Sequence record: PZ445444.1
Strand: one strand, 5' to 3'
DNA: 64,000 nt
DNA from: a phage
Below, piece after piece: positions 16,800 through 34,346 of the stretch; within the stretch, counting starts at the first letter, position 1, and the number at the start of each line of letters is the position of its first letter. Made by a program: the position numbers and the translations under genes. A model generated the notes under the pieces. The model made no database searches. It was not told the DNA's origin and saw only the letters and a list, made by a program, of their open reading frames with translations.

Positions 16800-17300
16800 A
16801 AAATTTCTGGCATATCAAGTGTAAGGAGGATTTCTAAAATGGATTTCCTCCTTTTGATATTTCACCGGGCTAGATATTTTAAAATTCTTAGAAAATCAGA
16901 AAATGGATCGAAAACTAAAATGGATTTTTCAGAGCAGGCACGACGAGATGAACCACTCATCCTATCGTCTGCACCATATTCCAGACCACCATTACAGATT
17001 TCCCGCACATGCTCACATCCTTCTACTAGAACTTCCCCCACTTACCCTTGACCTTTTATAGTAATAATCCAACCACTACCTTGAAGTTGTGGCGCAGCTT
17101 TCCAAGTACTCGATCTGTTTTTCGTTTCAAAGATTGAATTTTCTGAAAATTTTTCTCGATAAATTTCTCAGTACTCGATCTGTTTTTCGTTTTCTGAATC
17201 GGATTTTCTGGAAATCGTTCCGGCTCTCGACCTGAAATTTTTGGGGACGAAATCGATTTTTCGTTTTCAGAAATGGATTTTTAAAATTTCTATATGGGAA
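16800..17300. repeat. iteron-like direct-repeat region without convincing ORFs
   Basis: Repeated aaaatggat units and two copies of tactcgatctgtttttcgttt plus related cgatttttcgttttc. Confidence 0.5.
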
Positions 17301-17401
17301 TATTTTAGTGGATACTATTTTATAGGAAATTGTTACGGAGGGTAATTAGCGTGCTAATTAAATTTATTAAATGCGAGGAGTTCTCATTTAGAATTTTGAA
17401 T

Positions 17402-17480
17402 GATAATCATTCTCGTTTGCAGAATAACGGGCAGGCCCGGTGATTGTCTCCCGGCCCCTACTGCCCCGGCTTGTTATTAT
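17402..17480 (+). repeat. structured hairpin repeat element, copy 1
   Basis: gataatcattctcgtttgcag ... cccggtgattgtctccc ... ctgcccc; nested inverted repeats around conserved ttgtctccc. Confidence 0.5.
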
Positions 17481-17530
17481 AGTAACACACAGGACAAAGA
17501 AAGCAAGAAGTTTTTGCATAAATTTTTAGA

Positions 17531-17620
17531 CGATAATGATAATCGTTCTCATTTCATGCAGCGCCCATCCCCGGTGGTTGTCTCCCCCGTCACCGGTGCC
17601 TGCCGTCCTTTCGATAGGTA
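17531..17620 (+). repeat. structured hairpin repeat element, copy 2
   Basis: gataatcgttctcatttcatgcag ... ccggtggttgtctcccccgtcaccggtgcctgccgt. Confidence 0.5.
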
Positions 17621-17667
17621 TATTTTGCCACCTAGCGGGGCCGCTGTCAACACTTTTCAAAAAAAAA

Positions 17668-17682
17668 AAAAAATTTCTAACC
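17668..17682. repeat. A homopolymer tract (about 14-15 A)
   Basis: Uninterrupted run of A in a non-coding region. Confidence 0.8.
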
Positions 17683-17816
17683 TGATGCGCTGACCGCTGC
17701 AACCTGGCGGGGCCAGCCTGGCAGGGCCTAACTGACCAGGTAGGAGAGAATGAAGGCTTGCAAACCTGGTGGGCCTATGCTATAGGATAGATAACAATTG
17801 AAGAGGAGGTACAAAA

Positions 17817-17996: not shown

Positions 17997-18025
17997 TTGA
18001 CAGCTCGGACAGTTCTTGTTATTCT
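17997..18025 (+). promoter_or_regulatory. sigma70-like promoter
   Basis: TTGACA-N17-TATTCT. Confidence 0.45.
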
Positions 18026-18078
18026 TATCCTCGCAAGGTGAACAACACCACACCAATTAACAGAGAGGATAAAAAATC

Positions 18079-18276
18079 ATGAACGCCTACGGAATTAAAG
18101 TACGTCGCAACACTCGCCAGGTGGTCACCAATCAAGTGATTTGCCGGGTGGATGTAACCATCAACAACGGGCAAGGCCTTTATAAATTTCGTCGCGGTCA
18201 TAGCTATACCCTGCAACAGCTTAATCGTTGCGCCCTGACAAAAGGTCAGATCAACCACTGGTTTAATAAAAAATAA
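18079..18276 (+). CDS. hypothetical basic protein (65 aa)
   Basis: RBS GAGAGGA upstream of ATG. Confidence 0.5.
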   Translation: MNAYGIKVRRNTRQVVTNQVICRVDVTINNGQGLYKFRRGHSYTLQQLNRCALTKGQINHWFNKK

Positions 18277-18279
18277 GTA

Positions 18280-18308
18280 TTGACATATAGTCCGACACCA
18301 AATACACT
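18280..18308 (+). promoter_or_regulatory. sigma70-like promoter
   Basis: TTGACA-N17-TACACT. Confidence 0.5.
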
Positions 18309-18340
18309 AAAAGCACAAAAGACACTAAGAGGATAAAATC

Positions 18341-18739
18341 ATGAAAACCACTACCTTTAATTTTGATAATGCAGACTTTTCTTTTTCTGATGTCAAGAAC
18401 TGCCGCCGTGATCGTGGATTTTACAAGGCTTATAATCTGGTGGGCCTGGACGATGACAATAATTTGCACGAAGTAGCTGAGATCCGGTATTATGCCGCCG
18501 CCAGTGGTAACACTCACTACTGCGTGTTTTGGATTCACGACAACAAGAACAATAAGTACGGTTATACTGGCGGCAAGGCGAGCGGTCACGGTTACGATAA
18601 AGCTAACGCAGCACTTGAGAGCGCATTAAATGCTATGGGGATCACTGCCGACGGCTGGATCTACGAAGAAGAGTTTTTGTCGGCACTTGCTGACCACCTG
18701 GGCTATAAAAAGCACATTGTGACATGCGCCCACGAATAA
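18341..18739 (+). CDS. hypothetical protein (132 aa)
   Basis: RBS AAGAGGA upstream of ATG. Confidence 0.6.
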   Translation: MKTTTFNFDNADFSFSDVKNCRRDRGFYKAYNLVGLDDDNNLHEVAEIRYYAAASGNTHYCVFWIHDNKNNKYGYTGGKASGHGYDKANAALESALNAMGITADGWIYEEEFLSALADHLGYKKHIVTCAHE

Positions 18740-18745
18740 AAATCA

Positions 18746-18773
18746 TTGACACGCTGCAAAATTTAAGTAAACT
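18746..18773 (+). promoter_or_regulatory. sigma70-like promoter followed by GC-hairpin leader
   Basis: TTGACA-N16-TAAACT, then ggcgggaa-tgt-ttcccgcc hairpin before the RBS. Confidence 0.5.
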
Positions 18774-18822
18774 AGACACAAAAGGCGGGAATGTTTCCCG
18801 CCAGCACAAAGGAAAAAAGATC

Positions 18823-19218
18823 ATGAATAAGAACGTACGCCGCATCATGAACGAACTGGCAAACGATGAAAAAATTATTGACATGCATTTAGTCAACATT
18901 TGCCGCCGTTGTGTAACATATAACAACCGCGCCGCAAAAGCGCGTGAGATGAACGCAAAAGGCACCTTAAAGCCCTTTCAGGTGGTTGTAAAATCTATAA
19001 CCAGTGCAGCAGGCCAGGCGCATGACCACAACAACGGGAGCACTAATATTGATCCGTCTTACGTAATGAAACGGATCCGGACTTGCAAGAATAAAGAGCA
19101 GGTGTATAATGTCATAGACTGGTTGGACTCTATGGGCGATGTGGTTTACAATAGGTTTTCTGCAGCTATCGAGATCCAGCTTGACAGGTTGGACGGTAAA
19201 GTACTGAAAACTTACTAA
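18823..19218 (+). CDS. hypothetical protein (132 aa)
   Basis: ATG at 18823 after AAAGGAAAA; the track start at 18724 is upstream of the promoter. Confidence 0.55.
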   Translation: MNKNVRRIMNELANDEKIIDMHLVNICRRCVTYNNRAAKAREMNAKGTLKPFQVVVKSITSAAGQAHDHNNGSTNIDPSYVMKRIRTCKNKEQVYNVIDWLDSMGDVVYNRFSAAIEIQLDRLDGKVLKTY

Positions 19219-19220
19219 GA

Positions 19221-19266
19221 TTATTTTTAGATGGCCTTGACTTCAGGGCCATCAATAAAGTAAACT
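19221..19266 (+). promoter_or_regulatory. conserved hairpin element with TTGAC in the loop, copy 1
   Basis: ttatttttagatggccttgacttcagggccatcaataaagtaaac; about 10-bp stem; possible TTGACT-N18-TAAACT promoter. Confidence 0.45.
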
Positions 19267-19298
19267 AATCCCAGTTAAGCGAAAAAGGAGGCTTGAAG

Positions 19299-19418
19299 AT
19301 GAGCACTACACGCCAACACACAAAGGTAACGATTATCGTTTGCATCATTGGTTACATCCTGGCGCAAATGTTGATGGGTAGCGCCAATGATTTCGCAAAA
19401 TTTTTCTTAGACTTTTAA
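19299..19418 (+). CDS. hypothetical small hydrophobic peptide (39 aa)
   Basis: ATG preceded by AAGGAGG; product MSTTRQHTKVTIIVCIIGYILAQMLMGSANDFAKFFLDF has a single predicted membrane helix. Confidence 0.4.
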   Translation: MSTTRQHTKVTIIVCIIGYILAQMLMGSANDFAKFFLDF

Positions 19419-19446
19419 TTGACAAGCTAACTTAAATCAGTATAAT
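19419..19446 (+). promoter_or_regulatory. sigma70 consensus promoter
   Basis: TTGACA-N16-TATAAT. Confidence 0.6.
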
Positions 19447-19498
19447 ACTAAGCACATAAACGGGAAAACTTCCCAGAACACCAAAAGGAGAAAACATT

Positions 19499-19849
19499 AT
19501 GAATACTTCCATCACTATGACCGCCGAAGAAAAAGCCCTGCAGATCGCCGCTCTGAAAAAACAGATTGCAGAACTTGAAGACAAGATCGACAATTTTGAA
19601 ATCGACGAAGACAAGTACGACGATAAATATGATGAATGGTTAGACGAGATCTACGGCGAAATCATGATCGGAAACATTTCTTTTCTTCCGTCGCGTATCC
19701 TCAAGGAGCTAGATCCTATCGCTTACCGCTGCGGATTTAGCGACTACATCGACAGCCTGGATATTGAGGACGATGAAGAATACCAGGAATTACAGACAGA
19801 GCTCGAAGAAGTGAAAGAAGAGCTTGCAGAACTGGAAGAAAACGAGTAA
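19499..19849 (+). CDS. hypothetical acidic coiled-coil protein (116 aa)
   Basis: RBS AAGGAGA; heptad-like E/K-rich segments. Confidence 0.6.
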   Translation: MNTSITMTAEEKALQIAALKKQIAELEDKIDNFEIDEDKYDDKYDEWLDEIYGEIMIGNISFLPSRILKELDPIAYRCGFSDYIDSLDIEDDEEYQELQTELEEVKEELAELEENE

Positions 19850-19851
19850 AT

Positions 19852-19898
19852 TTATTTTTAGATGGCCTTGACCCCAGGGCCATCAATAAAGTAAACTT
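19852..19898 (+). promoter_or_regulatory. conserved hairpin element, copy 2
   Basis: tttatttttagatggccttgaccccagggccatcaataaagtaaac. Confidence 0.45.
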
Positions 19899-19938
19899 TA
19901 GACTGTTAACACTTAACCAATACAGAGGAGTTAAAACC

Positions 19939-20184
19939 ATGGCAGCACTAATCACCAAATATTATGCCCCTACCAACACCAAAAGCGCCCGTATCATGGT
20001 AAAAGGCTTCGGACGTAAAAAGGTGTACACCTGGGATTATGCCTTAGACACGGAAGACAACTACACCAACGCAATGACCGATTTTATTAATGAACTAAAT
20101 AAGCAGATCTTGACAAGTTATAAAGTGACCGATATTGCTTATATAGGTGAAGGCGGGATCTGTTTTGTAGGCATTGTGAAATAG
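19939..20184 (+). CDS. hypothetical protein (81 aa)
   Basis: RBS GAGGAG upstream of ATG. Confidence 0.55.
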   Translation: MAALITKYYAPTNTKSARIMVKGFGRKKVYTWDYALDTEDNYTNAMTDFINELNKQILTSYKVTDIAYIGEGGICFVGIVK

Positions 20185-20189
20185 TTATT

Positions 20190-20235
20190 TTTTCGGTGGT
20201 CCTGGTTGCAGGGCCATCTATAAAGATAATTTATT
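20190..20235 (+). promoter_or_regulatory. conserved hairpin element, diverged copy 3
   Basis: ggtggtcctg-gttg-cagggccatc forms a 10-bp stem with wobble pairs, followed by tataaagataat. Confidence 0.4.
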
Positions 20236-20258
20236 AACACCATGAAAGGAGAAAGTAC

Positions 20259-20612
20259 ATGATCAGCGGGGCAAGTTTTATTATTGGCGCTATTGCTACG
20301 GCTTTAATTGTAAATAAGATCCAGGATAAAAAGGAAAGAGGAAGTACCGCCCTTGCAGAATATCCATTTTGGGCATTCAACGATAACGAAGATTATATTA
20401 TAAAGTATAAAAATAAAGAAGGTGACCAAGTAACACCGCGACCGATCCCGGCTTACAAAATGCAGGAAACACTATACCGCCTGGAGGCGGGAGGCGCAAA
20501 AATTGTAGACTTTTGGGGATACGACCACACAGATCAGGAAGTTATAAAGCGCCGTATCCGGGCTATTCAGGCCAATATTGAAGTTAGCAAGGGGGGAATA
20601 TATGAAGATTAA
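20259..20612 (+). CDS. hypothetical protein with N-terminal membrane helix (117 aa)
   Basis: RBS AAGGAGA; N-terminus ISGASFIIGAIATALIV. Confidence 0.55.
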   Translation: MISGASFIIGAIATALIVNKIQDKKERGSTALAEYPFWAFNDNEDYIIKYKNKEGDQVTPRPIPAYKMQETLYRLEAGGAKIVDFWGYDHTDQEVIKRRIRAIQANIEVSKGGIYED

Positions 20613-20799
20613 TTTTGAGAAGATTGTAAAGCGATCTCATGATTCCGAAGAGCTGCCGGAACGACGCCAGCGTAACAATAAACTGAATAAGCCAAAAAGA
20701 TTTGGAAAGATCTGGCGAAATCATTATGATCGTAAATTGCCTGGCCTACTTTTGGAACGTGAACGACAGGCAGAACGATACCGCCATAAAGACAAATAA
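20602..20799 (+). CDS. hypothetical basic protein (65 aa)
   Basis: ATG at 20602 after AAGGGGGGA; overlaps the upstream gene end. Confidence 0.5.
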   Translation: MKINFEKIVKRSHDSEELPERRQRNNKLNKPKRFGKIWRNHYDRKLPGLLLERERQAERYRHKDK

Positions 20800-20807
20800 C
20801 AACCAAC

Positions 20808-20834
20808 GCCCCGCCATTGTGCGGGGCTTTTTAT
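20808..20834 (+). terminator. intrinsic terminator
   Basis: gccccgc-cattgt-gcggggc followed by tttttattt. Confidence 0.7.
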
Positions 20835-20980
20835 TTCTATCCTACAAATAGCGCCCCTGGTTGGCCCTGTAAGCGCCAAAAAGGCCCCACCTATGCAATC
20901 GCCCCCCTTTAACCTGAAAACATCGCTTAGGGCCGTTTTATGGCGTTAAAAATATCATTGACAGTGATTTTATTTAAAGC

Positions 20981-21008
20981 TTGACATCTTAAACAGGTTA
21001 GCTATACT
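20981..21008 (+). promoter_or_regulatory. sigma70-like promoter (second of tandem TTGACA boxes)
   Basis: TTGACA-N16-TATACT; another TTGACA lies about 25 nt upstream. Confidence 0.6.
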
Positions 21009-21040
21009 AACCACATCAAAGAGAGAAAGGAGTAAACGCC

Positions 21041-21301
21041 ATGCGTAAATTAAAAAATTTTGATAAAGTTGATGTTGTCCTGAATAATTTTTACTACTGC
21101 AACAACAAGGCCATTTGGTGGCGTGATAGTTCCACCGATAAAGTTAAAGCTCGCTTTCTCCAAGGGCACTGGCAAGGCCGTCCAGTGATTAAAATACTGG
21201 GGCAACTGGTAGCGTTTAAAAATTGCCGCCGTGTTGATGACGTTGAAGAGATCTTGAACATTTTACGCCACAATAATTTAAAAAATAGTGTTGACAAGTA
21301 A
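21041..21301 (+). CDS. hypothetical protein (86 aa)
   Basis: RBS AAAGGAG upstream of ATG. Confidence 0.55.
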   Translation: MRKLKNFDKVDVVLNNFYYCNNKAIWWRDSSTDKVKARFLQGHWQGRPVIKILGQLVAFKNCRRVDDVEEILNILRHNNLKNSVDK

Positions 21302-21318
21302 ATCTCGATAAGTATACT
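21291..21318 (+). promoter_or_regulatory. sigma70-like promoter with GC-hairpin leader
   Basis: TTGACA-N16-TATACT, then ggcgggaa-aac-ttcccgcc hairpin. Confidence 0.6.
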
Positions 21319-21375
21319 TAAACACACAGGCGGGAAAACTTCCCGCCACTAACAAAGAAAATAGGAGAAAATATC

Positions 21376-21999
21376 ATGACCACCGTTAACATTACCACAG
21401 GTTACAATTTATCTTTCGACGTGCTGACCGACGAACAAAAAGAAAAAGCTATTGAAATGGTCCGCGAAAGAGAAGAACACAGCGGGGATAATTTTTTTGC
21501 AGAAAGTGTAATTGAACACTATAAAGAATATGTCTTTCCAGAGTACGGCCTTGAAGATACCGAAGTACGTTGGTCCGGCTTTTGGTGTCAAGGCGATGGC
21601 GCGTCAATCAGTGCTGAAAACGTGGATTTAGAAAAATTCTTGCGTAAAGTAAAGGCCCTGACCAAGTTCCGATCAATTCGTCACTTGTTCGGCACAATGC
21701 ACGATGGCGAGTTATCAGCCAGTGTTGAACGTATCCCGTTTAGCCATTATCATCACGAAAACACAATAGGAGGGTGCATCGATACTAATTGGCTAGACCT
21801 GACCACCAAGCAAGAGGACAAAGTTGAAGAGCTGGAAGAGCTGATCACCGAGACGGTACGGGAGCTATCCCGCAAGGTTTACGTAGACCTGGAGGAGGCC
21901 TATCTTGAACAGTTTACTACCGAAAACCTGATCGGCCTTATTGAAGCCAATGATTGGCGGTTTGATGTGGATGAATATGGGGAGATGAGTTTTTCATAA
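21376..21999 (+). CDS. hypothetical acidic protein (207 aa)
   Basis: RBS AGGAGA; no confident motif. Confidence 0.6.
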   Translation: MTTVNITTGYNLSFDVLTDEQKEKAIEMVREREEHSGDNFFAESVIEHYKEYVFPEYGLEDTEVRWSGFWCQGDGASISAENVDLEKFLRKVKALTKFRSIRHLFGTMHDGELSASVERIPFSHYHHENTIGGCIDTNWLDLTTKQEDKVEELEELITETVRELSRKVYVDLEEAYLEQFTTENLIGLIEANDWRFDVDEYGEMSFS

Positions 22000-22007
22000 A
22001 TAAAGTG

Positions 22008-22035
22008 TTGCAATAATCTAAAAACCTGCTATATT
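22008..22035 (+). promoter_or_regulatory. sigma70-like promoter
   Basis: TTGCAA-N16-TATATT, followed by ggggc...gcccc leader hairpin. Confidence 0.5.
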
Positions 22036-22088
22036 AAAAACTCAAGGGGCGAGATGACTTGCCCCCACAAAACAAAGAGGAAAACATC

Positions 22089-22469
22089 ATGAAAAACACT
22101 ACTAAAGCTATTGACACCGTTATGTTTAACCTGGTTACATTCCGTGAAGATATGAAAGATCTTCCACGTGAAACAGTGTGCGACCATATCGAAAACTATC
22201 GCAAACTAATCAAAGAGTTGCCTTTAAAACGTGACCAGTACGCGGCTAACGCTATGCTTAACGCCATGATCAAAAAGATGATCCAGTGTGATTTAACTCT
22301 GGCCTATGATTATGCAGGCGGTCGTTTTGCAGTATACAATCAGCCCGTGCCCGGTATGAGCACCACCGAAGAATTGCACGCGTTAAATCTGAAACAAGAT
22401 GTATGGGATAACATGCCCCGCGTGGTGGTGTGGGCAGAAAGCGGAAAGATTTACGGCGATAATTTTTAA
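22089..22469 (+). CDS. hypothetical protein (126 aa)
   Basis: ATG at 22089 after AAAGAGGAAAA. Confidence 0.55.
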   Translation: MKNTTKAIDTVMFNLVTFREDMKDLPRETVCDHIENYRKLIKELPLKRDQYAANAMLNAMIKKMIQCDLTLAYDYAGGRFAVYNQPVPGMSTTEELHALNLKQDVWDNMPRVVVWAESGKIYGDNF

Positions 22470-22533
22470 TCAGGTAACAGGCGGCATATTTGCCGCCTTA
22501 TTGTTAAACAGAACTGCAAAAGAGGTACATAGA

Positions 22534-22905
22534 ATGGAATTTATTATTTTGGCTGTAGTAGTTGCCTTGTTCAACGCCTGGATCGCTGGCAAGATGGGTA
22601 GATCCGCTTTTTTATGGTTTATTATATCTATTTTCCTGGGGGTGGTTGCAACTATTGTACTTGTTATCCTTGCAATTGTTGACAAGGGGAATAATAGAAA
22701 GGGTAAAGTATTTTCAGACCTGTACGACGCTCAAACATTTGTCAACGCCTACTACAGCGATCTTCCAGTCTCCCTACGTTGCAGCCTTGCACAACAGGTT
22801 TTCGATGAAGCTAAAACCAGAGATCACGCCCATGAGATTTGTTTAACTGAGGCGGATCGCCTATTTGAGAGGAATAGAAAATATGTGGACCAGCCGTTTA
22901 AATAA
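22534..22905 (+). CDS. hypothetical membrane protein (123 aa, two predicted helices)
   Basis: ATG at 22534 after AAGAGG; hydrophobic stretches FIILAVVVALFNAWIA and FLWFIISIFLGVVATIVLVILAIV. Confidence 0.55.
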   Translation: MEFIILAVVVALFNAWIAGKMGRSAFLWFIISIFLGVVATIVLVILAIVDKGNNRKGKVFSDLYDAQTFVNAYYSDLPVSLRCSLAQQVFDEAKTRDHAHEICLTEADRLFERNRKYVDQPFK

Positions 22906-23124
22906 TGCCACGTTAATTAACCCCTTTAGTGAAGATTTGAAGCCAGCCGCCTGGCGGGATGGATTCAATAACGAAAGCTTTATTTTCAGGCCTGATCTTA
23001 AGGAATTTTATAACAATGGATCGAACAACGACAGAGATAATTTTTCTTGTAATGTGCGTGGTGATAATACTCCTGGGGGCCATTGCAAACCACGTCACTG
23101 CTAACAGGAGGAAAGGGGGAGACG

Positions 23125-23244
23125 ATGACACCTAAGGATAAGCCCCGCACCGATAAGGCGCGCCGTGTTATGGTATGGCTTGAGATCATCGCCCTTGAAA
23201 TATTGTTAGGCGTAGGGATGTATTTTATCGCTGTAAGTAATTGA
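23125..23244 (+). CDS. hypothetical small membrane peptide (39 aa)
   Basis: ATG preceded by AGGAGGAAAGGGGGAG; hydrophobic C-terminal half. Confidence 0.35.
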   Translation: MTPKDKPRTDKARRVMVWLEIIALEILLGVGMYFIAVSN

Positions 23245-23296
23245 TAACGGCCCCGATCCCTGGGGCCTAACTTTTCAAATTTTTTTCTCCCTGAGT

Positions 23297-23325
23297 GTTG
23301 CAATCCGATCCAGAATATGGATAAT
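23297..23325 (+). promoter_or_regulatory. sigma70-like promoter
   Basis: TTGCAA-N17-ATAATA. Confidence 0.4.
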
Positions 23326-23384
23326 AACAATCAACGGGGAGACACTCCCCACCGCATAGACAAAGTTCCAAAAGGAGAAACAAA

Positions 23385-23586
23385 ATGAGCAACAATATCC
23401 GCGTTATTAACTTCAAAAAAGAAGAAAAAAATTGCCGTGCTGATTGACGGTCAAGAAATCTTTAAAGGTGATTATGAAGATCATCAAACGGCGATTAGTA
23501 TCACTCGCGTGATTGGTTACCATAATTTTTACCCTCAAGGCGCTGAGGCAGCAGTAAAACGAATTAAAGAGATTGTAGGCCTGTAA
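23385..23586 (+). pseudogene. small gene interrupted by a +1 frame change at an A7 run
   Basis: ATG 23385 after AAAGGAGAAA; frame stops at 23447 just after the A7 run at 23425-23431; a downstream frame runs uninterrupted to 23586. Removing one A gives a continuous 66-aa ORF. Confidence 0.45.
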
Positions 23587-23588
23587 AA

Positions 23589-23636
23589 TTTATTTTTAGA
23601 TGGCCTTGACTCCAGGGCCATCAATAAAGTAAATTT
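23589..23636 (+). promoter_or_regulatory. conserved hairpin element, copy 4
   Basis: tatttttagatggccttgactccagggccatcaataaagtaaat. Confidence 0.45.
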
Positions 23637-23677
23637 AAACCCTGTTAAAATAATCAGTGCAAAAAGGAGTAATGATC

Positions 23678-23977
23678 ATGTTTATCCAGGCTAATAATCT
23701 TTATTTCTTTGATGGTCAGATCGTAGACGGCGTGGAGGTGGAAATCACCGGGTGCCCTGGCGGTCAGGTTATGACTTTTCGGAATAATGCCTTTGATGAT
23801 TCTCATATCGTTATGAGAATGGAAGTTAGTAAGCTGGATGACAAGAAAACACTCATTGATTATTCCGTGAAAGATCATCCAGACTACCACATGATCTATG
23901 GTGATTTGTGCATTGTTGACCGTGACAAGGTGGGCGGCATTGTGATCGCTATTGTGAACGATGTTTTCTCAAACTAA
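23678..23977 (+). CDS. hypothetical protein (99 aa)
   Basis: ATG at 23678, 8 nt after AAGGAG. Confidence 0.55.
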   Translation: MFIQANNLYFFDGQIVDGVEVEITGCPGGQVMTFRNNAFDDSHIVMRMEVSKLDDKKTLIDYSVKDHPDYHMIYGDLCIVDRDKVGGIVIAIVNDVFSN

Positions 23978-23994
23978 TTTCAGCAGGTGATTTT

Positions 23995-24345
23995 ATGAAA
24001 GTAAAACTATATTACCTTAATGAGCTTAACCCCCTTGCCCAGGTCCGCGCCCTGGCTAATACCTTGATTTGTGAGAAATCTGTATATTGTGTTGAGCTTA
24101 ACTCCATGCGTGAACGTCTCAAAGGTGGTTACTTTGACATCCATGCTGCAATCAACGGCCTGAATATGGAATTTATCCGCTTACGTAACAGCCGCCAGAA
24201 TCTGGCAAGAATGGAACAAGATCCGGCCCACCTTCGTAAGCTGGTTATTGAAAATCATCTAATGTTTAATGCCGATGGTGATTATTACCATTTTCACCGT
24301 AAACGCTGGTACCGTAGCGGCAATATAGGAAAGAATGCAAAATAA
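23995..24345 (+). CDS. hypothetical protein (116 aa)
   Basis: ATG start; no recognisable motif. Confidence 0.55.
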   Translation: MKVKLYYLNELNPLAQVRALANTLICEKSVYCVELNSMRERLKGGYFDIHAAINGLNMEFIRLRNSRQNLARMEQDPAHLRKLVIENHLMFNADGDYYHFHRKRWYRSGNIGKNAK

Positions 24346-24382
24346 GGCCCCTGGCAGGGCCTGCAGCGATATAATCACATAA

Positions 24383-24414
24383 AGGCTATGCGGTTGCATA
24401 GCCTTTATTATTTT
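24383..24414 (+). terminator. intrinsic terminator
   Basis: aggctatgc-ggtt-gcatagcct followed by ttattatttt. Confidence 0.6.
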
Positions 24415-24463
24415 GGCGTTACAGCGGCCCCCAAGGCGCTTAAAAAAATTTTTAAAGAAGTAC

Positions 24464-24492
24464 TTGCATCAAGTCCTACAATATGGATAATA
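24464..24492 (+). promoter_or_regulatory. sigma70-like promoter (weak)
   Basis: TTGCAT-N17-ATAATA. Confidence 0.4.
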
Positions 24493-24550
24493 AAGGGTGT
24501 CGGGGGGGTGAGGCCTCCAATCATTAACCGGATAGATAGGAGTTAAAACC

Positions 24551-24835
24551 ATGGCTATTGTTACCGTTGGCGATGTAGTAGAAATGGAAGCCAAATACTT
24601 AAAAGCTGGTATGCATATCATACGGAATGATCAAGAATTGTTATTAACCATGGTTGAATATAATCCCGGTCAGGATTATCCAAGCACTGACTACTTTTTC
24701 CAGTATGTTGATGAAGAATTAAAAGAGGATGAGGCTTATCAGGGTGAATTTTGTAATTTCTTTTGCCCTGATGAGGTTGTAAAAGTTATCTATCAACCTG
24801 GCGTACCTTTCCCGCTGCACGCTATCAACAAATAA
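24551..24835 (+). CDS. hypothetical protein (94 aa)
   Basis: RBS TAGGAG upstream of ATG. Confidence 0.55.
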   Translation: MAIVTVGDVVEMEAKYLKAGMHIIRNDQELLLTMVEYNPGQDYPSTDYFFQYVDEELKEDEAYQGEFCNFFCPDEVVKVIYQPGVPFPLHAINK

Positions 24836-24890
24836 ACCTGGCGGGGCCGAAAAGGCCCCCAATTATGAAAATAAAGAGAGGCAAATCATC

Positions 24891-25124
24891 ATGATGGAAC
24901 AAATTAAACGCGCCGAGGCTATTAATGGCAACGTGATCTATTTTGTCAGCAAAAACGAAAAAGGCGTACCCTATGCGGCGGTAATAGTACAGCCTGACGG
25001 CGATTATTGGTGTACTGTGTACGGCGCTTATTCTTTTGGGCGTCCAGTGCATGATAAAATTTTGAAAGTAGCGAACCCTACCGGGAAAAATATCACAGCA
25101 GAAAAATTTTTTGAAAATAGTTGA
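24891..25124 (+). CDS. hypothetical protein (77 aa)
   Basis: RBS AAAGAGAGG upstream of ATG. Confidence 0.5.
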   Translation: MMEQIKRAEAINGNVIYFVSKNEKGVPYAAVIVQPDGDYWCTVYGAYSFGRPVHDKILKVANPTGKNITAEKFFENS

Positions 25125-34299: not shown

Positions 34300-34328
34300 A
34301 TTATTTCACACAGGGTTGGCGTTGTCAA
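34300..34328 (-). promoter_or_regulatory. sigma70-like promoter with -35 inside a hairpin loop
   Basis: Minus strand TTGACA-N17-AATAAT; -35 sits in the loop of cacacagg...cctgtgtg (8-bp stem). Confidence 0.45.
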
Positions 34329-34346
34329 CACCTGTGTGCAAGAAAA

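Follow-up and report, generated by a model that had tools for sequence, protein, structure and literature searches.

A repeated bipartite RNA hairpin at early gene junctions of a Vequintavirus genome

Four copies of a hairpin in the early gene cluster

The window analysed here, a stretch of 64,000 nucleotides (nt) in sequence record PZ445444.1, is the genome of a Vequintavirus (rV5-like), an Escherichia coli myovirus, and it contains exactly four copies of a 49-nt intergenic element, all on the plus strand. The region around the element is an early gene cluster in which small plus-strand genes, preceded by strong ribosome-binding sites, are interspersed with many consensus sigma-70 promoters and a scatter of terminators. 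About 130 Vequintavirus genomes, among them nom, MaxBurger, rV5 derivatives and Murica, match the segment from 18000 to 25000 with 93-98% identity. Within the operons of this cluster the element occupies gene junctions that have no strong promoter or terminator of their own. Each copy follows the upstream stop codon at a distance of 0-3 nt (TAA at 19216-18, TAA at 19847-49, TAG at 20182-84 and TAA at 23584-86), and a ribosome-binding site and ATG come 41-56 nt after the upper stem of the hairpin described below.

Three of the copies are close to one another in sequence and are referred to as A-type, namely copy 1 (19218-19266), copy 2 (19849-19897) and copy 3 (23587-23635), while the diverged copy 4 (20183-20231) is referred to as B-type. 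A covariance model run with filters off returned only these four sites in the 64 kilobases (kb), with scores of 74-80 bits (80.2, 79.8, 79.0 and 74.5 bits for copies 1, 2, 3 and 4), the next match having an E-value of 1.5. The 24-nt core GATGGCCTTGACNNCAGGGCCATC has 3 exact matches in the window, against 0.00 expected from 100 shuffles. Searches of Rfam gave no family for the element, the overlapping matches being at chance level only (E of 3 or more).

Folding showed that the T-rich lead of the element pairs with its AAAGTAA tail, so that the entire 49 nt form one bipartite hairpin. The lower helix spans 10 columns, is A/U-rich (UUAUUUU paired with AAAGUAA, plus extensions) and includes an invariant U.G pair. 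It is followed by an asymmetric 2x3 internal loop, with UA or UC on the 5' side and AAU or UAU on the 3' side, and then by a G/C-rich upper helix of 10 base pairs (bp), GAUGGCCUUG with CAGGGCCAUC, which contains one U.G pair and is capped by a tetraloop. In copy 1 the lower stem is formed by 19218-19227 and 19257-19266, the internal loop by TA and AAT, and the upper stem by 19230-19239 and 19244-19253 around the loop ACTT. The upper stem-loops of the other A-type copies lie at 19861-19884 (copy 2, loop ACCC) and 23599-23622 (copy 3, loop ACTC), and that of copy 4, at 20195-20218, has the same architecture built from a different sequence (GGTGGTCCTG-GTTG-CAGGGCCATC). All four copies adopt the same fold, with predicted free energies of -20.7 to -23.6 kcal/mol and z-scores of -5.2 to -6.5 (copy 1, -20.7 and -5.4; copy 2, -20.9 and -5.3; copy 3, -23.6 and -6.5; copy 4, -22.4 and -5.2), and the bipartite structure of copy 2 was retained when it was folded in a 191-nt context. 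The antisense strand folds more weakly (-16.3 kcal/mol, z-score -2.6) because the G.U pairs turn into A.C mismatches, which makes the fold specific to the sense strand. When the element was folded as single-stranded DNA, the centroid structure retained the upper stem only.

These results refine an earlier description of the locus, made without database searches (the sequence-only reading). The four copies directly after stop codons are all where it placed them, its stem of about 10 bp proved to be a 10-bp stem with a 4-nt loop, and folding together with the sequence of the tail bears out a strong RNA hairpin that lacks a U-tail. It had also placed the motif TTGAC inside the hairpin, of which only the AC lies in the loop, the TTG being part of the stem; in the diverged copy, to which it had likewise assigned TTGAC, the motif is absent and the loop reads GTTG. 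What it took for flanks, the T-rich lead and the A-rich tail, is the lower helix.

Structural conservation, distribution and recombination

For comparison across genomes we collected 43 A-type and 14 B-type copies from 16 genomes and contigs, and pairing was assessed in an ungapped alignment of 16 distinct sequences, giving 320 pair cells. Of these cells 98.4% were paired, a fraction that fell to at most 57% when the 3' partners were slid by 1-3 columns. Compensatory changes occur at four pairs of the lower helix: pair 8-54 is G-C or A-U, pair 9-53 is U-A in one B haplotype and C-G in another, pair 11-51 is U-A or else A-U or G.U, and pair 12-50 is A-U in the A-type and U-A in the B-type. At the upper-helix pairs 20-41, 24-37 and 26-35 the two types differ by wobble-compatible changes only. 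Variation within the A-type core is similarly distributed with respect to the structure, since across the 43 copies a single one of the 34 paired positions varies (C33T, which yields a G.U pair), compared with four of the nine unpaired positions plus one insertion. The variable unpaired sites are loop positions 3-4, which read TT, CC, TC, AC or GC, and the 3' side of the internal loop, while loop bases 1-2 (AC) are constant in all 43 copies. The A- and B-types thus differ in sequence and share the same architecture, including the size of the internal loop, which argues for selection on the fold and not just for copying. Compensatory and wobble-only changes, variation at unpaired bases and the weaker antisense fold all point to selection on the sense hairpin, and at the level of sequence comparison we regard the element as shown to be a lineage-restricted, sense-strand bipartite RNA hairpin under structural selection. 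A separate irregularity was seen in phage Alma (L001 2653-2700), in whose B-type copy each arm of the upper stem is longer by one base, a G on the 5' side and a T on the 3' side; the added bases would give two bulges and may be assembly errors.

In the phage collection the element was found only in Vequintavirus, at about three near-identical places per genome, with the one exception of Justusliebigvirus KKE7M, which carries one copy. There was no match in 5,426 complete E. coli genomes, and a metagenome scan recovered only the same A and B types, plus chance matches in coding sequence, and no more diverged relatives. The rV5 genome paper and its table of promoters and terminators do not list the element. 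The protein homologues that an 81-amino-acid neighbour has in unrelated phages showed no synteny.

Near-identity among the copies makes them substrates for homologous recombination, and traces of such events were found. An IMG/VR contig (L014) matches the window over 19003-19266 and then from 19851 onward, with 19267-19850 missing and the two matching segments overlapping by exactly one 47-nt element, so that some 630 bp between copies 1 and 2, with two genes and a promoter, have been cleanly deleted. In KKE7M, which belongs to another subfamily, a 479-bp block (L030 6581-7048) has 90% identity to window positions 19418-19895 and consists exactly of a promoter, a 116-amino-acid gene and the element. 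Similarity stops at the end of the element, which in KKE7M is identical to window copy 3 over 50 nt, and the module points to a recent horizontal transfer of a single cassette. Loop variants are also shared within genomes, which implies gene conversion between copies: in six genomes both copy 1 and copy 2 have ACAC, and in four genomes ACTC occurs in each of the three copies. Judged from these alignments, the element is shown to serve as a recombination substrate.

The same 24-nt stem, mostly with a GNRA loop, was borne by about 22 prophage-like IMG/VR contigs of Pseudomonas type. In these Pseudomonas/Halopseudomonas contigs (L003-L027, L033-L044; e.g. L013 4934-4989) the hairpin GATGGCCTTG-GNNA-CAGGGCCATC is invariant, has a stem that matches the upper stem of the phage element exactly, and is bordered by TTTCCTC and CGGGAAA. 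A conserved non-coding leader, over 100 nt long, has the hairpin at its end, and variable early genes, among them HNH endonuclease and CsrA-like genes, follow directly downstream; the loci had no Rfam match, and the hairpin may itself be an undescribed leader RNA. Scanning bacterial genomes with the stem also matched unrelated Rhodospirillales and Ralstonia sequences, and the estimated chance expectation for a 20-nt pattern is about one match per collection of such size, so the Pseudomonas match is taken as chance and not homology. A recognition site shared with Pseudomonas prophages was accordingly rejected as a chance-level match, and the lower-stem changes there look uncompensated by eye.

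Processing signal, promoter and other candidate explanations

The reading that we prefer is that the element acts post-transcriptionally, as an intercistronic processing or stability signal, for which we consider the case about evenly balanced; within that reading RNase III would be the likeliest enzyme, an assignment by analogy that we put forward tentatively. E. coli RNA polymerase would transcribe the small early genes from strong sigma-70 promoters as operons of 2-4 genes, and the element, placed at the internal gene junctions of these early operons, would once transcribed fold into a bipartite hairpin of about 20 bp in the sense-strand early mRNA. It would most likely act in the manner of the T7 early sites, with host RNase III cleaving at the internal loop, which would leave the upper hairpin as a protective 3' end of the upstream cistron and free an unstructured A-rich leader for the downstream cistron. 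As a fallback, the hairpin would be a plain barrier against exonucleases. The three A-type copies may in addition double as weak internal sigma-70 promoters.

Several properties of RNase III substrates bear on this proposal. RNase III sites of E. coli are enriched in intergenic regions within transcripts (PMC6212723), and the substrate studied in most detail has its determinants in an 11-bp helix beneath the tetraloop, where the distal box has a U-A pair and then a strictly required U.G pair, and the proximal box is A/U-rich (PMC1540722, Pertzev and Nicholson). Internal loops restrict cleavage to one strand, leaving a protective 3' hairpin (PMC1540722). Like such substrates, the element has approximately two helical turns (predicted helices of 10 + 10 bp with the 2x3 internal loop), and in the A-type U27-A34 and then U26.G35 stand directly below the loop-closing pair, i.e. 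at the distal-box positions. Substrates of this type are free of G-C at positions 2 and 4 of the proximal box and have at least 11 bp from the scissile bond to the loop. In the register set by this distal box, position 2 of the proximal box is A20-U41, which is acceptable, and position 4 is an A.A mismatch of the internal loop.

A number of observations weigh against a role as a processing signal. The B-type has C26-G35 in place of the distal-box U.G pair, position 3 of the proximal box is G19-C42 where A-U is preferred, and the upper stem is 10 bp long, compared with the minimum of 11 bp for good cleavage in the model substrate. Tetraloop sequence is irrelevant in the model substrate, so RNase III leaves the invariant loop AC unexplained. 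A literature search found no Vequintavirus transcriptome paper. Restriction of the element to one genus and one recipient phage implies that any function it has is dispensable in related phages, and orthologous copies are not much better conserved than the flanking genes. Since the phages compared are 93-98% identical, the covariation derives from few independent events, namely the split between A- and B-types, that between the two B haplotypes, and pair 8-54.

Any role in transcription initiation has to be weighed against a known class of phage cassette. Promoter-early stem-loops (PeSLs) occur in the T4-like phages RB49, phi1, PST and nt-1 (PMC2839356, Arbiol et al. 2010; PMC4122927, Comeau et al. 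2014) and are defined by the order of their parts, which begins with the stop codon of the upstream gene, set in AT-rich sequence, and continues with a promoter of sigma-70 type and a stem-loop, and then a Shine-Dalgarno sequence and ATG; the stem-loop contains G.T pairs and can overlap the -35 (PMC2839356). They lie between ORFans and mediate modular shuffling, and lacZ fusions showed both promoter and attenuator activity (PMC2839356). In the present element the sequence-only reading had seen a promoter of the form TTGAC-N18-TAAAYT. Such a match exists in the three A-type copies, at 19237-19266 in copy 1 (plus strand; TTGACT-18-TAAACT), 19868-19897 in copy 2 and 23606-23635 in copy 3, each scoring 9/12; it is missing from the B-type copy 4, which has no sigma-70-like match and no -35. 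Scores of 9/12 are commonplace in this region, with 48 such sites in 12 kb compared with 28 expected. The proposal that the -35 is sequestered in the hairpin has no obvious meaning in double-stranded promoter DNA, and, as the PeSL concept has already been published, the combination of promoter and hairpin in one element is not a new idea.

One alternative, rather unlikely in our judgement, is that both layers are selected, with the DNA acting as a weak UP/-35/-10 promoter, the RNA as an RNase III-type hairpin, and the cassette as an inter-subfamily recombination joint. This would explain the invariant AC of TTGAC in an otherwise variable loop and, if true, would mean that a PeSL-like system with a defined RNA partner exists beyond the T4-like phages. 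The same duality, an RNA signal and a promoter in one element, had been suggested by the sequence-only reading; its RNA half is well supported by the selection on the hairpin, and its promoter half is only possible. The C/T variation at the -10 adds nothing to that half, given that the variable base covaries with its pairing partner (pair 8-54) and RNA structure already accounts for it. Promoter activity of the A-type copies is, in our view, a possible, secondary property.

A promoter-led cassette of the PeSL type, in which the downstream ORFan is transcribed from a promoter made up of an AT-rich, UP-like lead, TTGACN, an 18-bp spacer and TAAAYT, and the hairpin only attenuates or marks the end of read-through transcripts, strikes us as similarly doubtful. 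The layout fits the PeSL definition, including a stem-loop over the -35 and G.T pairs (PMC2839356), the score is 9/12 in the A-type copies, TAAACT recurs as the -10 of a neighbouring promoter that looks strong (18746-18773), and all 43 copies retain TTGAC, with five states at the two bases that follow. PeSL promoters, however, match consensus, whereas here the spacer is 18 bp and the score is common by chance. Moreover, the B-type keeps the entire structure without a -35, the variable -10 base changes together with its pairing partner, one phage tolerates an extra spacer base (19 bp), and the compensatory changes in the lower helix are not explained by a promoter alone.

The element could instead be a mostly neutral local repeat, a hairpin duplicated with gene cassettes, homogenised by gene conversion and acting solely as a recombination substrate, which we find improbable. 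Its confinement to one genus with 3-4 copies within 4.4 kb, the loop variants common to copies of one genome, the natural contig deleted exactly between copies 1 and 2, the Justusliebigvirus mosaic block that stops at the element and the conservation of orthologous copies, little above that of flanking genes, are all consistent with such a history. Substitutions nevertheless avoid paired bases or keep pairing, and the A- and B-types have diverged in sequence with an identical architecture down to the internal-loop size, both of which speak against neutrality and for a hairpin that is maintained as RNA.

That the element is bound by a specific protein appears very improbable, whether the protein is a phage-encoded regulator that recognises RNA or a dimeric repressor for which the dyad would be a DNA operator covering the -35. 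The invariance of the upper stem and of loop bases 1-2, together with the conserved U.G pairs and internal-loop size, suggests recognition beyond mere stability, and all flanking genes are of unknown function. On the other side, a DNA operator fits poorly with B-type half-sites that differ at 3/10 positions in a manner that only G.U pairing tolerates, and with a lower helix whose covariation points to RNA; an RNA-binding protein has no candidate, and the nine neighbouring proteins gave no domain match apart from a T7 gp1.1-like one. For a hairpin or operator at the DNA level more generally, the single-stranded DNA fold is stable in the upper stem only and the changes fit G.U pairing, and this candidate was rejected. 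N4-type hairpin promoters, which have 5-7 bp stems and 3-nt loops and require the virion RNA polymerase, were considered as well.

The least credible explanation is a transcription terminator or attenuator. In its favour, the record of phage Murica (KT001917) labels two copies, 3 and 4, as a 45-bp 'terminator' each, and PeSL stem-loops lowered downstream lacZ expression in reporter assays (PMC2839356). The upper stem, however, is followed by AAUAAAG and the full hairpin by mixed sequence (tail AAUAAAGUAAA) with no U-tract, so that the element is not an intrinsic terminator. The helix at its base is A/U and weak, the element is missing from the terminator list of the rV5 paper, and our scan, which picks up true terminators nearby at 20808, 22479, 24379 and 27906, has none of the four copies among its 23 terminator-like sites. 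Intrinsic terminators resemble the element in having a G/C-rich hairpin directly 3' of a gene, and differ from it in their U-tract.

Neighbouring features and related phage elements

The genes around the copies are largely ORFans, eight of nine having matches solely to PHROG families without an assigned function, and a domain match was obtained for just one of the nine proteins, the product of 20602-20799, which has a Pfam Phage_1_1 match (T7 gene 1.1 protein, E = 2e-11) and lies in the same operon as copies 2 and 4. The gene 5' of copy 3 (23385-23586) contains 7 consecutive A's, against 6 in five other Vequintavirus genomes, a difference that shifts the frame of an otherwise conserved 66-amino-acid open reading frame and represents either a sequencing error or a pseudogene. 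Downstream of copy 3, a perfect 13-bp palindrome (ATAAAGGCTATGC GGTT GCATAGCCTTTAT) at 24379-24408 has T-rich flanks on the plus strand and, together with a minus-strand hairpin at 24345-24362, looks like a terminator pair closing the copy 3 operon. Further upstream, 17052-17816 contains two long non-coding stretches, one with three tandem repeats of 65-74 nt (17096-17281) and the other, of 373 nt, with a run of 15 A's and G/C-rich segments; this segment is probably the 'non-coding' box on the rV5 genome map.

Other combinations of promoter and hairpin are present in the window. On the minus strand lies a strong, TG-extended promoter at 34328-34300 (TTGACA-17-AATAAT, 11/12), whose -35 and spacer are covered by a hairpin of 8+4 bp at 34307-34338 (-17.6 kcal/mol, z-score -3.8) that directly follows the stop codon of the upstream gene. 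Both promoter and overlapping hairpin are therefore real, as the sequence-only reading had it, and the kinship it proposed with the repeated element is not, as the two share no sequence; the minus-strand case is laid out like a PeSL and counts as a second, separate cassette. A third kind of cassette, common in the early region, has a strong promoter and, 6-10 nt past its -10, a simple G/C hairpin. One example, at 18746-18802 on the plus strand, has the promoter TTGACA-16-TAAACT and the hairpin GGCGGGAAnnnTTCCCGCC (18784-18802), which begins 10 nt after the -10 and would thus form the 5' end of the transcript, and a second promoter with the same hairpin (21329-21347) is found at 21291-21347, also on the plus strand. 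Read on the minus strand, the GGCGGGAAnnnTTCCCGCC sites score as intrinsic terminators (hairpin followed by TTTTGTGT), and the hairpin recurs little changed in many intergenic regions of KKE7M (phi92-like; L030 3690-3710, 6303-6323 and 7323-7343). Such 5'-terminal stem-loops occur in nearly every intergenic region of the early cluster. They resemble the element in being stable, in lacking a U-tail and in standing 15-30 nt upstream of the next ribosome-binding site, but they are simple stems of 8-9 bp after a good -10, whereas the element is bipartite and has no usable promoter upstream. The possibility that a promoter upstream of the hairpin makes the element itself a 5'-terminal stem-loop was rejected, there being no usable -35/-10 in the upstream gene ends.

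The early hairpins of phage T7 offer a second comparison. When the T7 early intergenic regions were folded, they gave an upper stem of 9-13 bp, a loop of 3-5 nt, an internal loop and a short lower stem, and one of them, R1, has a 2x3 internal loop as in the element. We take these regions and their positions to be the RNase III sites R0.3, R0.5, R1, R1.1 and R1.3 (Dunn and Studier 1983); the T7 records carry no annotated RNase III site features. Transcription starts also lie within or next to these hairpins, namely E. coli promoter C (3113), phi1.1A (5848) and phi1.3 (6409). The T7 sites and the element are alike in forming a hairpin family in host-transcribed early operons, just after stop codons and with G.U pairs. 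They differ in that there is no sequence similarity between them, the proximal-box fit of the element is imperfect and its upper stem has 10 bp and not 11 or more, and cleavage is proven for the T7 sites while for the element it is inferred. T7 provides a good working analogy for the element as a candidate RNase III substrate.

The significance of these findings is modest. Among the records examined the element is unannotated or, in at least one record, called a terminator, and on the evidence given here it does not qualify clearly as a terminator or as a promoter and is instead a structured RNA element of the sense strand. It accounts for specific deletions and mosaic joints in the early region, and it is a compact candidate for studying RNase III-dependent processing of early messages; Vequintavirus members such as MaxBurger infect E. 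coli K-12 and can be obtained for laboratory work.

Among known systems the closest counterpart is the PeSL. Both are short, repeated intergenic cassettes that lie between ORFans in an early, plastic region and reach from a stop codon to a Shine-Dalgarno sequence and ATG, both have a stable stem-loop with G.T pairs within or overlapping a promoter match, and in both, recombination between copies leads to deletions and module exchange. PeSL promoters, in contrast, are consensus-like and strong, whereas the match in the element is weak (9/12, with a UP-like lead) and absent from one copy; what is conserved in the element is a larger bipartite RNA fold with covariation, and its host genome is a Vequintavirus and not a T4-like phage. 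The element thereby extends the composite regulatory cassette at gene-module boundaries from the T4-like phages to Vequintavirus, and by this analogy it is best read as a local version of already known phage intergenic cassettes, one that would be PeSL-like in function.

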